NCBI RefSeq assembly: GCF_056712565.1
Contig: NZ_CM160072.1
DNA length: 64,000 nt
Direction: 5' to 3' (one strand)
Position 1 is the stretch's first letter. Each line of letters starts with the position of its first letter. Made by a program: the position numbers and the translations under genes. Shown here piece by piece: positions 4,203 to 34,385 of the stretch. The notes below the pieces were generated by a model that saw only the letters and a list, made by a program, of their open reading frames with translations, was not told the origin of the DNA and ran no database searches.

Positions 4203-7200
4203 ATGACAGAACAACAAAAATTGACCTTTACTGCCTTGCAGCAGCGGCTGGATTCGCTGATGCTGCGTGACAGACTGCGTTTTTCTCGCCGTCTGCACGG
4301 CGTGAAGAAGGTTAAAAATCCTGATGCACAACAGGCCATTTTCCAGGAGATGGCGAAAGAGATTGACCATGCGGCAGGGAAAGTCCTGCTGCGTGAAGCG
4401 GCACGACCGGAGATTACTTACCCGGACAATTTGCCGGTTAGTCAGAAAAAACAGGACATTCTCGAAGCGATTCGTGACCACCAGGTGGTGATCGTCGCCG
4501 GGGAAACGGGTTCCGGTAAAACGACTCAGCTACCGAAAATCTGTATGGAGCTGGGTCGCGGGATTAAAGGGCTGATCGGCCATACCCAGCCGCGTCGGCT
4601 GGCGGCGCGAACGGTGGCGAACCGTATTGCGGAAGAGCTAAAAACGGAGCCGGGCGGTTGCATCGGTTACAAAGTGCGTTTCAGCGATCACGTCAGTGAT
4701 AACACGATGGTCAAGCTGATGACCGACGGTATCCTGCTGGCAGAGATCCAGCAAGACCGCCTGCTGATGCAGTACGACACCATCATTATTGACGAAGCGC
4801 ACGAACGCAGCCTGAATATCGATTTTCTCCTCGGCTATTTGAAAGAGTTGCTGCCGCGGCGTCCTGACCTAAAAATTATTATCACTTCCGCGACTATCGA
4901 CCCGGAACGCTTTTCGCGCCACTTTAATAATGCGCCGATTATCGAAGTCTCCGGTCGGACCTATCCGGTGGAAGTGCGCTATCGCCCGATTGTTGAAGAA
5001 GCTGATGACACCGAGCGCGACCAGTTGCAGGCGATTTTCGATGCCGTAGATGAACTGAGCCAGGAAAGCCCTGGCGACATTCTGATTTTTATGAGCGGCG
5101 AGCGAGAAATTCGCGATACCGCCGATGCGCTGAACAAGCTGAACTTACGCCATACGGAAATTCTTCCGCTTTATGCACGGCTTTCGAACAGCGAGCAGAA
5201 CCGCGTCTTCCAGTCGCACAGCGGACGGCGCATTGTGCTGGCGACTAACGTCGCGGAAACCTCGCTGACCGTACCGGGGATTAAATACGTTATCGACCCA
5301 GGTACGGCGCGTATCAGCCGCTACAGCTATCGCACCAAAGTGCAGCGTTTGCCGATTGAGCCAATTTCGCAGGCTTCAGCTAATCAGCGTAAAGGCCGCT
5401 GCGGTCGTGTGTCAGAAGGGATCTGTATTCGTCTCTATTCCGAAGACGATTTCCTCTCGCGCCCGGAGTTTACCGACCCAGAAATTCTGCGTACTAACCT
5501 GGCCTCGGTTATTTTGCAGATGACCGCACTGGGCTTGGGCGATATCGCCGCATTCCCGTTTGTCGAAGCACCGGATAAACGCAATATCCAGGATGGCGTG
5601 CGTCTGCTCGAAGAACTGGGCGCGATCACCACGGATGAACAGGCCAGCGCCTATAAACTGACGCCGCTCGGTCGCCAGCTCTCGCAGTTGCCTGTCGACC
5701 CACGTCTGGCGCGTATGGTGCTGGAAGCGCAAAAACATGGCTGCGTGCGTGAGGCGATGATTATCACTTCCGCGCTCTCTATTCAGGACCCGCGTGAGCG
5801 GCCAATGGACAAGCAGCAGGCATCGGACGAAAAACATCGTCGCTTCCACGACAAAGAGTCTGACTTCCTCGCGTTTGTGAATCTGTGGAATTATCTTGGC
5901 GAGCAGCAAAAGGCGCTTTCTTCAAACGCCTTCCGTCGCCTGTGCCGTACTGATTATCTCAACTATCTGCGCGTGCGCGAATGGCAGGATATCTACACCC
6001 AGTTGCGCCAGGTGGTGAAAGAACTTGGCATTCCGGTTAACAGCGAACCGGCGGATTATCGCGAAATTCACATTGCGTTGCTGACCGGTTTGCTTTCGCA
6101 TATCGGCATGAAAGATGCCGATAAACAAGAATATACCGGCGCACGTAACGCGCGTTTCTCCATCTTCCCCGGTTCCGGCTTATTCAAAAAACCGCCGAAA
6201 TGGGTAATGGTGGCGGAACTGGTAGAAACCAGCCGCCTGTGGGGACGCATTGCTGCGCGGATCGACCCGGAATGGGTGGAGCCAGTTGCTCAGCATTTGA
6301 TTAAACGCACCTATAGCGAACCGCACTGGGAACGGGCGCAGGGCGCGGTGATGGCAACGGAAAAAGTCACTGTTTATGGTTTGCCGATTGTTGCCGCGCG
6401 CAAGGTCAACTACAGCCAGATCGATCCGGCGTTATGTCGTGAACTCTTTATTCGCCACGCGCTGGTGGAAGGTGACTGGCAGACGCGTCACGCATTCTTC
6501 CGTGAAAACCTGAAACTACGGGCCGAAGTGGAAGAACTGGAACACAAAACTCGTCGCCGCGATATTCTGGTGGATGACGAAACGTTGTTTGAGTTCTACG
6601 ACCAGCGCATCAGCCACGATGTGATCTCCGCACGCCATTTCGACAGCTGGTGGAAAAAAGTCAGCCGCGAAACGCCTGATTTGCTCAACTTTGAAAAGAG
6701 CATGTTGATCAAAGAAGGGGCGGAAAAAATCAGCAAACTGGATTACCCGAACTTCTGGCATCAGGGCAATCTCAAACTGCGTTTGAGCTATCAGTTTGAG
6801 CCCGGCGCGGATGCTGACGGTGTGACCGTGCATATCCCGCTGCCGCTACTTAACCAGGTTGAGGAGAGTGGGTTTGAGTGGCAGATCCCCGGTCTGCGTC
6901 GTGAGCTGATCATCGCCCTGATTAAATCGCTGCCGAAGCCGGTACGCCGTAATTTTGTGCCCGCGCCAAACTTCGCCGAAGCGTTTTTAGGCCGCGTCAC
7001 ACCGCTGGAATTGCCGTTGCTCGACAGCCTTGAACGAGAGTTACGGCGGATGACTGGCGTCACCGTTGACCGCGAAGACTGGCACTGGGATCAGGTGCCC
7101 GATCACCTGAAAATCACTTTCCGCGTGGTGGATGACAAAAACAAGAAGCTAAAAGAAGGGCGCTCATTACAGGATCTGAAAGACGCCCTGAAAGGCAAAG

Positions 7201-20084: not shown

Positions 20085-21077
20085 ATGCAGAGCGATAAAG
20101 TGCTCAATTTGCCGGCAGGCTACTTTGGTATTGTGTTGGGGACGATAGGGATGGGATTTGCCTGGCGCTATGCCAGCCAGCTTTGGCAGGTCAGCCACTG
20201 GTTGGGTGATGGGCTGGTGATTCTGGCGATGATCATCTGGGGATTATTGACTGGCGCATTTATTACCCGACTCATACGCTTTCCGCATAGCGTGCTGGCA
20301 GAAGTGCGCCATCCAGTGCTGAGCAGTTTTGTGAGTTTGTTTCCGGCAACGACGATGCTGGTGGCGATTGGTTTTGTTCCGTGGTTTCGCCCACTGGCGG
20401 TGTGCCTGTTCAGTTTTGGTGTCGTGGTTCAGTTGGCTTATGCCGCATGGCAAACTGCGGGATTATGGCGCGGATCTCACCCTGAAGAAGCTACCACGCC
20501 TGGACTGTATCTGCCGACAGTTGCCAACAACTTTATCAGCGCAATGGCCTGTGGTGCGTTGGGCTACACCGACGCCGGTCTGGTGTTTTTAGGCGCAGGC
20601 GTTTTCTCATGGCTAAGCCTGGAACCGGTGATCTTGCAGCGTCTGCGCAGTTCGGGAGAATTACCCACGGCACTGCGGACATCACTCGGCATTCAGCTCG
20701 CTCCTGCGCTGGTGGCCTGTAGTGCCTGGCTGAGCGTCAACGGCGGCGAGGGTGACACGCTGGCGAAAATGCTTTTCGGTTATGGACTGCTGCAACTGCT
20801 GTTTATGCTACGTCTGATGCCATGGTATCTCTCCCAGCCATTTAATGCTTCATTCTGGAGTTTCTCGTTCGGTGTATCTGCACTGGCAACCACCGGTTTG
20901 CATCTGGGGAGTGGCAGCGATAATGGATTTTTCCATACGCTGGCGGTGCCGCTGTTTATCTTTACCAATTTTATTATTGCAATACTGCTCATCCGTACTT
21001 TTGCGCTTCTGATGCAGGGAAAATTGTTAGTCAGAACCGAGCGCGCCGTTTTAATGAAAGCAGAGGACAAAGAATGA
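20085..21077 (+). CDS. tehA: tellurite resistance / dicarboxylate-transporter-family membrane protein TehA
   Basis: Track ORF 19977..21077; start re-set to [19 protein letters not shown] giving 330 aa; polytopic membrane protein. Confidence 0.9.
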
Positions 21078-21667
21078 TCATTCGTGATGAAAACTATTTT
21101 ACTGATAAATATGAATTAACCCGCACACACTCTGAAGTGCTGGAAGCGGTGAAAGTGGTTAAACCGGGTAAAACGCTGGATCTGGGCTGTGGCAATGGTC
21201 GTAACAGTCTTTACCTGGCAGCCAATGGTTATGATGTTGACGCATGGGATAAAAATGCCATGAGTATCGCCAACGTCGAGCGCATTAAGTCCATTGAAAA
21301 TCTGGATAATTTACACACCCGGGTCGTTGATCTGAATAACCTCACATTTGATGGACAGTACGATTTTATTCTTTCTACTGTGGTGCTGATGTTCCTTGAG
21401 GCTAAAACCATCCCAGGGCTGATTGCCAATATGCAACGTTGCACTAAACCTGGCGGTTACAACCTGATTGTGGCGGCGATGGATACCGCTGATTATCCAT
21501 GTACCGTCGGCTTCCCGTTTGCCTTCAAAGAGGGGGAATTACGTCGATATTACGAAGGCTGGGAGAGGGTGAAATACAATGAAGACGTCGGCGAGCTGCA
21601 CCGCACCGACGCCAACGGTAATCGTATTAAACTGCGTTTCGCCACGATGCTGGCACGTAAAAAATGA
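21074..21667 (+). CDS. tehB: tellurite methyltransferase TehB (SAM-dependent)
   Basis: 197 aa ORF; start overlaps the tehA stop (ATGA); SAM-binding motif [15 protein letters not shown]. Confidence 0.9.
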
Positions 21668-21827
21668 TCCGGTAAGAACAAAGCGCGTGAAAATTCCCCA
21701 CGCTGAGATGGTTTACTGTTCTTCTTTTCGGTAAGCATATTTTTTATCGAAGGGATGTGAAATTAATCACAGTAGTCGAAGTTTTTTAGCCGCTTAACTT
21801 ACTGAAATTTAACTACTGATGATTGAC

Positions 21828-21873
21828 TTAGCCCCTTTTTCGGCATTGACTATGTCGTCTGAAAAGGGGCTAA
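21828..21873. repeat. perfect 12-bp inverted repeat with about 22-nt spacer (function unknown)
   Basis: ttagcccctttt ... aaaaggggctaa in the tehB-ydcL intergenic region; not followed by a T-run on either strand. Confidence 0.5.
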
Positions 21874-21969
21874 AAAATTTATTTTCACCAACACTTTTTT
21901 TGCCACAACACGAAGCGGCGCTTTTTGCTATAACTTAGAAAGTAATATAATCATCTCAGGAAACTATTC

Positions 21970-22638: not shown

Positions 22639-22646
22639 TTCCAGAC

Positions 22647-22674
22647 GCGCCATCGTTAGATGGCGCTTTTTATT
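22647..22674 (+). terminator. rho-independent terminator of ydcL
   Basis: Stem gcgccatc / gatggcgc, loop gtta, followed by tttttatt; overlaps the 3' end of convergent ydcO. Confidence 0.65.
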
Positions 22675-23854: not shown

Positions 23855-23902
23855 GTGCGTTATAACGTACAGGTACCGTAGCATTTGTCCGTTATAACGC
23901 AC
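23855..23902. promoter_or_regulatory. candidate operator: two copies of the palindrome cgttataacg in the divergent ydcO-sutR control region
   Basis: gtgcgttataacg (about 23855-23867) and cgttataacgcac (about 23890-23902) are exact reverse complements; each core cgttataacg is itself palindromic; located between divergent starts of ydcO and the XRE/cupin regulator gene. Confidence 0.4.
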
Positions 23903-23936: not shown

Positions 23937-24473
23937 ATGGAAAATCTCGCTCGCTTTTTATCCACCACACTTAAACAACTACGTCAGCAGCGCGGCTGGA
24001 GTCTTTCGCGACTGGCAGAAGCGACGGGCGTTTCTAAAGCGATGTTAGGGCAGATTGAGCGTAATGAATCCAGCCCGACGGTCGCGACATTATGGAAAAT
24101 TGCCACCGGGTTGAACGTGCCATTTTCAACATTTATTTCCCCGCCGCAGTCCGCTACGCCTTCAGTTTATGATCCACAACGGCAGGCGATGGTGATCACT
24201 TCGCTGTTTCCTTATGATCCACAACTCTGCTTTGAACACTTCTCGATTCAGATGGCACCCGGTGCAATAAGCGAATCGACGCCCCATGAAAAGGGGGTAA
24301 TCGAACATGTCGTCGTCATTGATGGACAACTTGATCTGTGTGTTGATGGTGAATGGCAGAGCCTTAATTGTGGGGAAGGCGTTCGATTTGCTGCAGACGT
24401 CACGCATGTCTATCGTAATGGTGGAGAGCAAACCGTACATTTTCATTCCCTCATCCATTACCCGCGCAGTTAA
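23937..24473 (+). CDS. sutR: XRE-family HTH + cupin-domain transcriptional regulator (SutR/YdcN)
   Basis: 178 aa ORF; N-terminal HTH (LSRLAEATGVSKAMLGQIERNES) and C-terminal cupin-like domain. Confidence 0.8.
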   Translation: MENLARFLSTTLKQLRQQRGWSLSRLAEATGVSKAMLGQIERNESSPTVATLWKIATGLNVPFSTFISPPQSATPSVYDPQRQAMVITSLFPYDPQLCFEHFSIQMAPGAISESTPHEKGVIEHVVVIDGQLDLCVDGEWQSLNCGEGVRFAADVTHVYRNGGEQTVHFHSLIHYPRS

Positions 24474-32886: not shown

Positions 32887-34311
32887 ATGCAACATAAGTT
32901 ACTGATTAACGGAGAACTGGTTAGCGGCGAAGGGGAAAAACAGCCTGTCTATAATCCGGCAACGGGGGACGTTTTACTGGAGATTGCCGAGGCATCCGCA
33001 GAGCAGGTCAATGCTGCTGTTCGCGCGGCAGATGCAGCATTTGCCGAATGGGGGCAAACCACGCCAAAAGCGCGTGCGGAATGCCTGCTGAAACTGGCTG
33101 ATGTTATCGAAGAAAATGGTCAGGTTTTTGCCGAACTGGAGTCCCGTAATTGTGGCAAACCGCTGCATAGCGCGTTCAATGATGAAATTCCGGCGATTGT
33201 CGATGTCTTTCGCTTTTTCGCCGGTGCGGCGCGCTGCCTGAATGGTCTGGCGGCAGGTGAATATCTTGAAGGTCATACTTCGATGATCCGTCGCGATCCG
33301 TTGGGGGTCGTGGCTTCTATCGCACCGTGGAATTATCCGCTGATGATGGCTGCGTGGAAACTGGCTCCGGCGCTGGCGGCAGGGAACTGCGTAGTGCTTA
33401 AACCATCAGAAATTACCCCGCTGACCGCGTTGAAGTTGGCAGAGCTGGCGAAAGATATCTTCCCGGCTGGCGTGATTAACGTGCTGTTTGGCAGAGGCAA
33501 GACGGTGGGAGATCCGCTGACCGGACATCCCAAAGTGCGGATGGTGTCGCTGACGGGTTCTATCGCCACTGGGGAACACATCATCAGCCATACCGCGCCG
33601 TCCATTAAGCGTACTCATATGGAACTTGGTGGCAAAGCGCCAGTGATTGTTTTTGATGATGCGGATATTGAAGCAGTGGTCGAAGGTGTACGTACTTTTG
33701 GCTATTACAATGCCGGACAGGATTGTACTGCGGCTTGTCGGATCTACGCGCAAAAAGGCATTTACGATACGCTGGTGGAAAAACTCGGTGCTGCGGTGGC
33801 AACGTTAAAATCGGGTTCGCCGGATGACGAGTCTACGGAGCTTGGACCTTTAAGCTCGCTGGCGCATCTCGAACGCGTCAGCAAGGCGGTAGAAGAGGCG
33901 AAAGCGACAGGGCACATCAAAGTGATCACTGGCGGTGAAAAGCGCAAGGGTAATGGCTATTACTATGCGCCGACGCTGCTGGCTGGCGCATTACAGGACG
34001 ATGCCATCGTGCAAAAAGAGGTATTTGGTCCGGTAGTGAGTGTTACGCTCTTCGACAACGAAGAACAGGTGGTGAACTGGGCGAATGACAGTCAGTACGG
34101 ACTTGCATCTTCGGTATGGACGAAAGATGTGGGCAGGGCGCATCGCGTCAGCGCGCGGCTGCAATATGGTTGTACCTGGGTCAATACCCATTTCATGCTG
34201 GTAAGTGAAATGCCGCACGGTGGGCAGAAACTTTCTGGTTACGGCAAGGATATGTCACTTTATGGGCTGGAGGATTACACTGTCGTCCGCCACGTCATGG
34301 TTAAACATTAA
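32887..34311 (+). CDS. patD: gamma-aminobutyraldehyde dehydrogenase
   Basis: 474 aa aldehyde dehydrogenase family ORF ([27 protein letters not shown]...), last gene of the ydcSTUV cluster. Confidence 0.9.
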
Positions 34312-34350: not shown

Positions 34351-34385
34351 CGTACTGTCAGAGCACTGATTTCTCTGACAGTACG
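34351..34385. terminator. bidirectional hairpin between patD and yncL
   Basis: Perfect 13-bp stem cgtactgtcagag / ctctgacagtacg with about 9-nt loop. Confidence 0.5.

Follow-up and report, generated by a model that had tools for sequence, protein, structure and literature searches.

The spacer between tehB and ydcL in E. coli carries no annotation in the K-12 reference record (NC_000913.3), yet it holds a perfect inverted repeat, and the question raised by this locus is what the repeat encodes and on which strand it acts. The repeat was examined within the window, that is, the whole 64-kb stretch of DNA analysed. Its arms, TTAGCCCCTTTT at 21828-21839 and AAAAGGGGCTAA at 21862-21873, are 100% complementary and lie 22 nt apart, exactly as the initial annotation had described them, and the distances given there (about 160 nt after tehB and about 100 nt before ydcL) agree with measured values of 160 nt from the end of tehB and 96 nt to the ATG of ydcL. 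Both genes run on the + strand, and the − strand has no gene nearby. The genes and the parts of the structure are as follows.

21074 to 21667, + strand: tehB coding sequence, the upstream gene (Pfam TehB, E = 3.6e-110)
21828 to 21840, + strand: 5' strand of the outer stem, TTAGCCCCTTTTT, composed of the 12-nt left arm and a U that pairs with G21861
21841 to 21846 and 21852 to 21857, + strand: inner stem, CGGCAT and ATGTCG, containing a G.U pair
21847 to 21851, + strand: hairpin loop of 5 nt, TGACT
21858 to 21860, + strand: 3-nt bulge, TCT, preceding the 3' strand of the outer stem
21861 to 21873, + strand: 3' strand of the outer stem, GAAAAGGGGCTAA
21970 to 22638, + strand: ydcL coding sequence (DUF3313 lipoprotein), the downstream gene, with its own promoter

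A search of the 64-kb window for the exact 12-mer matched only the two arms. Perfect inverted repeats of at least 12 nt, counted with spacers of 3-40 nt, occur at three loci of the window (five 12-mer hits), whereas 100 dinucleotide shuffles of the window averaged 0.18 hits and 13% of them contained at least one. The repeat by itself is only modestly improbable; it is because the hairpin region is conserved, as described below, that it is not attributed to chance.

Folding of the + strand RNA gave a hairpin of 13+6 bp with a 5-nt loop and an energy of −25.3 kcal/mol. Shuffled sequences gave −11.4 ± 2.8 kcal/mol (z = −5.0) and none of the 200 shuffles reached the energy of the hairpin. The − strand RNA reached just −19.3 kcal/mol, with a poor inner stem. 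The initial annotation had suggested a hairpin with a long loop; the hairpin stands and the long loop does not, as the 22-nt spacer is itself mostly paired, through one U.G pair and the 6-bp inner stem CGGCAU/AUGUCG, leaving 5 nt unpaired in the loop. The complete stem therefore comprises 19 bp interrupted by an internal loop, which is longer than usual for the stem-loops found at Rho-type 3' ends. Other Escherichia lineages can form the inner stem in an alternative register, TGAC/GTCA, making two registers in all. The heptamer ATTGACT occurs as a direct repeat just before the hairpin (21822-21828) and in its loop (21845-21851), 23 nt apart, and is invariant in all seven Escherichia sequences compared, although such invariant runs are expected at this shallow divergence. 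Two other roles for the region were considered and rejected. The right arm can also pair with 21779-21795 in an attenuator-like manner, but only in E. coli, the partner segment not being complementary in loci L004-L007. A 39-aa open reading frame that crosses the hairpin (21819-21938) has no Shine-Dalgarno sequence, has ACG in L005 and ATA in L007 in place of a start codon, and is shifted out of frame by indels in the sister species.

The initial annotation had proposed searches for further copies and for conservation. The tehB-ydcL spacer was found once per genome in 5,412 of 5,426 complete E. coli genomes, and the repeat is present in 5,365-5,412 of them (about 5,400) and in the other Escherichia species. 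In a sensitive blastn search with the 59-nt element alone, the number of places per genome had a median of one and never exceeded three. The element is single-copy and without a family consensus, which rules out REP/BIME or another dispersed repeat; neither of the two outcomes that the initial annotation had named as refuting, absence from related genomes and membership of a REP/BIME family, was thus observed. A search of Rfam returned no family at the gathering threshold, the best scores being 10-20 bits against thresholds of 36-70, with E-values of 0.26-7.9. Among the complete E. coli genomes the arms are essentially fixed. In the K-12 variant an A>G change in the right arm produces a U.G pair on the + strand and a C/A mismatch on the − strand, and in the O55:H7-type variant the change falls solely on the 13th, junction pair and is accompanied by one A added to the A-run. 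One strain, E. coli 20Ec-P-124 (L083, NZ_AP017610.1 1562849-1562943), carries a 36-nt duplication inside the hairpin, consisting of repeated GCCCCTTTTTCGGCA / TTTTTCGGCATTGACTATGTC segments, which probably arose by replication slippage at the palindrome.

The sequence that follows the stem is TAAAAAATTTATTTT on the + strand and TAAGTCAATC on the − strand. The elements between the stem and the ydcL gene are listed below.

21874 to 21885, + strand: tail AAAATTTATTTT, standing in place of the T-run of other genera
21886 to 21911, + strand: C-rich, G-poor stretch CACCAACACTTTTTTTGCCACAACAC, mildly rut-like and part of the TTTTTTGYCACAAC block of the near-invariant region upstream of ydcL
21926 to 21934, + strand: TGCTATAAC, probable extended −10 element of ydcL, resembling the sigma-S type GCTATAACTT and conserved across the Enterobacteriaceae

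On the + strand the stem runs into UAAAAAAUUUAUUUU, which begins with six A's followed by UUUAUUUU and contains 2-3 T in its first 8 nt; on the − strand it runs into UAAGUCAAUC. The initial annotation had concluded from the missing T-run on either strand that the repeat is not a canonical intrinsic terminator, and the tail and a terminator scan both agree. The scan called no terminator-like site at the hairpin on either strand, and no canonical + strand terminator between the tehB stop and ydcL. Of the elements of a canonical intrinsic terminator, a stable GC-containing stem-loop on the coding strand is present 160 nt past the tehB stop, and a U-rich tract of about 7-8 nt starting 0-2 nt past the stem is absent. 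When the locus was aligned with that of Enterobacter, the E. coli sequence TGAAA-AATTTATTTTCACC fell opposite TCTTTTTGCAATTTGTGCTCACC, and it is therefore precisely the U-tract that E. coli lacks. Downstream of the hairpin the RNA is richer in C than in G, with 8 C/1 G and 10 C/4 G per 30 nt (21878-21917). This bias lies at about the 6th percentile of the window, in a stretch that overlaps the conserved ydcL regulatory block, and the C-rich stretch need not be a rut site since it is also conserved within that regulatory region.

The conservation of the downstream region was examined in 80 ydcL loci from the Enterobacteriaceae, one genome per species. The approximately 95 nt before the ydcL ATG align in all genera and contain two deeply conserved blocks, TTTTTTGYCACAAC and TTTGCTATAACTT, separated by about 14 nt (window 21895-21934; L003-L082, about 35-75 nt before the ATG). 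The TTTGCTATAACTT block reads as the probable sigma-S-type extended −10 element of the ydcL promoter, in agreement with an RpoS-holoenzyme SELEX peak reported for the tehB>ydcL spacer (PMC5493296). Two further features of this region were noted. A AATTTGTGC motif lies just past the terminator in most genera except Escherichia, and a TTGTG...CACAA arrangement upstream of ydcL suggests the site of an unknown regulator. At the other end of the gene, the ydcL-ydcO junction (window 22639-22672; L001 3662-4001; L002 2717-3175) is a hotspot for insertion sequences, with IS609 in K-12 and IS200C in strain 7/2; the window strain has neither, and about 35 nt separate its two genes.

The gene upstream of ydcL differs between genera. 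In Escherichia tehB lies directly upstream, with a spacer of about 305 nt (178 nt in L003), and the tehB-linked spacers of Citrobacter/Salmonella and Kluyvera are about 165 nt and about 153 nt, respectively. The tehB gene is also upstream in Trabulsiella, Yokenella and others. A different gene occupies this position in Enterobacter, Lelliottia, Leclercia, Silvania and many Klebsiella/Raoultella. That of Enterobacter and Leclercia runs in the same direction as ydcL and encodes an SBP_bac_5 binding protein. Whatever the upstream gene, the local hairpin of greatest stability ends some 93-106 nt ahead of the ydcL ATG in most loci, directly upstream of the conserved promoter block. In the genera with a different upstream gene this hairpin is a textbook intrinsic terminator with a GC stem and a T-run, for example ACTGCCCGG-TTCCGT-CCGGGCAGT followed by TTTTTCGC, and canonical terminators are also found in some tehB-linked loci (L040, L047, L054, L055 and L061). 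The number of T's in the 8 nt past the stem averages 5.0 in the canonical group and 2.1-2.7 in Escherichia, Citrobacter/Salmonella and Kluyvera; in these last the hairpin energies are similar and the T-run is absent. A candidate terminator in Citrobacter that would use a T-run in the loop (CTGAAC...GTTCAG + CAUUUUUUU) was identified by eye and rejected as too weak and not conserved.

The tehB stop and the hairpin lie farther apart in Escherichia, by about 127 nt (window about 21675-21805), than in Citrobacter, Salmonella and Kluyvera. One locus, L003 (MOD1-EC7003; 2323-2501), is without this 127-nt segment and retains both the hairpin and the ydcL promoter, placing the hairpin about 30 nt past the tehB stop as in Citrobacter. 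From their position we infer that the Escherichia and Citrobacter hairpins are homologous.

How the stem evolves was examined in 17 Citrobacter and Salmonella sequences. Their hairpin sequence is unlike the E. coli one and is itself variable, yet 94% of the alignment cells at paired positions remain paired. Compensatory double changes were found in 8 of 9 pairs, compared with 2.4 ± 1.0 in shuffled alignments (0 of 500 reached the observed number), and shifting the 3' partners by 1-3 columns reduced the paired cells to 25-50%. These patterns show a stem that is kept by selection despite having no U-tract; the compensatory changes arose within a clade already lacking the U-tract, and the stem is therefore functional in that state. 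In the seven Escherichia sequences the outer stem is 92% paired and one-sided changes lead to G.U pairs, although covariation within Escherichia alone is not significant for seven sequences of shallow divergence. All Escherichia species and about 99% of E. coli genomes retain the stem.

The strand on which the structure acts was assessed from the same sequences. Stability favours the + strand RNA over its − strand counterpart in 7 of 7 Escherichia, 16 of 19 Citrobacter/Salmonella and 6 of 6 Kluyvera hairpins, comparisons for which p-values are nominal as the sequences are related and phylogeny was ignored. The difference averages about 4.4 kcal/mol in the hairpins without a U-tract and 1.4 kcal/mol in the canonical terminators, and arises because many pairs are U.G on the + strand and A/C mismatches on the − strand.

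Taken together, the inverted repeat is probably a terminator-derived + strand stem-loop, now without its U-tract, at the 3' end of the tehAB transcript. The initial annotation had called the repeat unexplained, a description that no longer fits a hairpin occupying the terminator position of the upstream gene immediately before a conserved ydcL promoter. The repeat would be transcribed at the 3' untranslated end of the tehA-tehB message as a + strand hairpin, descended from a terminator whose U-tract is missing in Escherichia, Citrobacter, Salmonella and Kluyvera. RNA polymerase would pause at the hairpin or read past it, and termination would then be either inefficient or assisted by Rho acting on the unstructured C-rich RNA just downstream. 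The 3'-to-5' exonucleases would trim the transcript back to the base of the stem and be blocked there, and the ydcL promoter would thereby be partly insulated from upstream transcription. From the structure, strand, conservation, position and missing U-tract we infer that tehAB transcripts end at the hairpin, with Rho involved in their termination and the stem shielding them from exonucleases; the most likely role of the hairpin is thus to define and protect the 3' end of the tehAB mRNA.

This proposal follows the behaviour of known E. coli transcripts. Rho-dependent transcripts end directly past stable stem-loops without U-tracts, their 3' ends being made by PNPase/RNase II trimming and followed by sequence with more C than G (PMC6061677). 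It has also been proposed that terminators switch type during evolution through changes in U content (PMC6061677). Like those protective stem-loops (PMC6061677), the tehB-ydcL hairpin is stable, has a terminator-like energy and lacks a U-tract, and it is likewise without an upstream A-tract; its excess of C over G downstream, at about the 6th percentile of the window, may or may not be of the same kind. It differs in its longer stem (19 bp with an internal loop) and would be a candidate member of this class. Compared with the canonical terminators of Enterobacter, Leclercia, Lelliottia, Silvania, Trabulsiella, Yokenella and others, its position is unchanged and its stem comparably stable, but the defining U-tract is absent. 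A likeness to the REP/BIME elements that stabilise 3' ends lies in its being an extragenic palindrome between co-directional genes, with a resistance to exonucleases that would be shared; unlike them it is single-copy and has no family consensus.

Mapping of transcript 3' ends, also proposed in the initial annotation, offers no support from published data. The complete, curated MG1655 tables of Term-seq 3' ends and Rho regions (Adams 2021), which cover growth in LB at OD 0.4 and 2.0 and in M63, show neither a 3' end nor a Rho region between tehB and ydcL; on the + strand the closest Rho regions are at 1,499,587 and 1,503,424. The TERMITe and SMRT-Cappable-seq supplements likewise contain no entry for this hairpin. 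The absent 3'-end signal may be due to low expression of tehAB, which is an assumption.

A close alternative to the Rho-assisted reading is weak intrinsic termination, in which the hairpin, either factor-independently or with the assistance of NusA/NusG, partially terminates tehAB transcription without Rho. Its position and stem energy equal those of the canonical terminators of other genera, the hybrid formed past the stem (UAAAAAAUUUAUUUU) is A/U-rich and weakly paired, and Dar & Sorek mention intermediate cases of reduced U content (PMC6061677). However, the 2-3 T in the 8 nt past the stem are preceded by six A's, the consensus scan is negative, the established mechanism requires that the U-tract directly adjoin the stem (PMC6061677) and the MG1655 tables contain no 3' end at the hairpin. 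On balance we regard this alternative as unlikely, though it is the one that best survives the comparison.

It is less likely still that the hairpin acts in cis inside an extended + strand RNA that continues into ydcL, serving as a processing site (for example for RNase III) or as a leader structure through which ydcL expression would be modulated. Such an RNA would originate either from tehAB read-through, which the absent U-tract would allow, or from an Escherichia-specific, CRP-controlled start upstream. The interrupted 19-bp stem is near the size of an RNase III substrate, and a perfect CRP core, TGTGAaattaaTCACA (TGTGA-N6-TCACA), is situated at 21756-21771, 57 nt upstream of the hairpin. 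This core is the only one in the 64-kb window, where 0.04 would be expected by chance; it lies within the Escherichia-specific 127-nt segment, is conserved in the Escherichia lineages with the long form of the spacer (L004-L007) and is unannotated in NC_000913.3. Against a long RNA, no promoter conserved at class I or class II distance from the core was found on either strand. By inspection, no + strand −10 element between the core and the hairpin is conserved, TAACTT being present in E. coli only, and a CRP-dependent + strand promoter starting an RNA just before the hairpin was rejected for want of a conserved −10 element. Moreover, L003 keeps the hairpin without the CRP segment, the positional homolog in most genera is a plain terminator that would block a leader, and ydcL is served by a conserved promoter of its own that lies beyond the hairpin on the downstream side. 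A search of the literature on CRP near tehB or ydcL found nothing relevant.

A related and similarly doubtful proposal holds that the loss of the U-tract in Escherichia, Citrobacter and Salmonella was itself selected, making the hairpin a regulatory element that sets tehAB read-through into the sigma-S-type ydcL promoter region. In that role it could be a conditional or factor-dependent terminator, or else a processing site, in Escherichia perhaps combined with the CRP site. If this were true, a tellurite-resistance/methyltransferase operon would be linked to an envelope lipoprotein under carbon and stationary-phase control.

The hairpin might also have no function, being either left over from a decayed terminator or a palindrome that arose by chance, as could be argued from the lost U-tract, the lack of an MG1655 3' end and the 13% of shuffled windows that hold a 12-nt inverted repeat. 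This is improbable, given that compensatory evolution continued inside the clade without a U-tract and that the stem is so widely retained among Escherichia species and E. coli genomes.

The initial annotation had also raised binding by a dimeric protein. Bound to both 12-bp arms, such a protein would regulate ydcL or form a roadblock to read-through. In the window strain the arms are perfectly symmetric, and some 70-115 bp separate them from the probable ydcL start downstream. A centre-to-centre distance of 34 bp would be unusual for such an operator, however, and the spacer pairs as well. Across genera it is the complementarity that is conserved and not the sequence of the arms, and substitutions that yield G.U pairs in the + strand RNA would be mismatched half-sites in DNA. 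Orthologous hairpins of unrelated arm sequence, compensatory changes and stability on the + strand only are the signature of an RNA structure rather than a DNA operator, and binding of a dimer to the arms is accordingly very improbable.

Least probable of all is that the hairpin belongs to a − strand antisense sRNA spanning the spacer, similar to 'Ssr15' of Shigella flexneri, which was predicted from an antisense promoter and terminator in the SF1779/tehB spacer and is not marked as validated by RT-PCR (PMC4782007). The scan of the window did reveal a − strand promoter-like site at 21761..21734 (TTCACA-16-TATGCT), overlapping a half-site of the CRP core, and a − strand terminator-like hairpin at 21703-21685 (GCGTGGGGAATTTTCACGC then GCTTTGTTCT), and these two sites may underlie the Ssr15 prediction (PMC4782007). 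In − strand terms, however, the promoter-like site is downstream of the tehB-ydcL hairpin, so that its transcript would exclude the hairpin; in addition the − strand fold is weaker, its G.U pairs becoming A/C mismatches, and the terminator-like hairpin is not conserved among Escherichia lineages. An Hfq-type sRNA gene on the + strand was rejected, as there is no conserved + strand promoter upstream and no U-tail.

A stem-loop at the tehAB 3' end thus remains the favoured explanation, and it would assign a function to a conserved element that has been unannotated, namely as the likely 3' boundary of tehAB, set apart from the ydcL promoter. The comparison of 80 species provides a clean natural example of the loss or gain of a U-tract with the stem kept, which would represent a switch between intrinsic and Rho-assisted modes, an idea drawn from the E. 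coli 3'-end maps. The result illustrates that idea and leaves current understanding as it is, the element being of an ordinary kind.

Two other perfect inverted repeats were observed in the window. At 23855-23902, arms of 13 nt, GTGCGTTATAACG ... CGTTATAACGCAC, are separated by a 22-nt spacer in the divergent region between ydcO (− strand) and a ydcN-like HTH gene (ATG at 23937), an arrangement that looks like an operator. At 34351-34385, a hairpin with perfect 13-nt arms, CGTACTGTCAGAG-cactgattt-CTCTGACAGTACG, has no T-run after it and lies 40 nt past the stop of a 474-aa + strand open reading frame (32887-34311); judged by these features it reads as a 3' stem-loop without a U-tract, of the same class as the tehB-ydcL hairpin.
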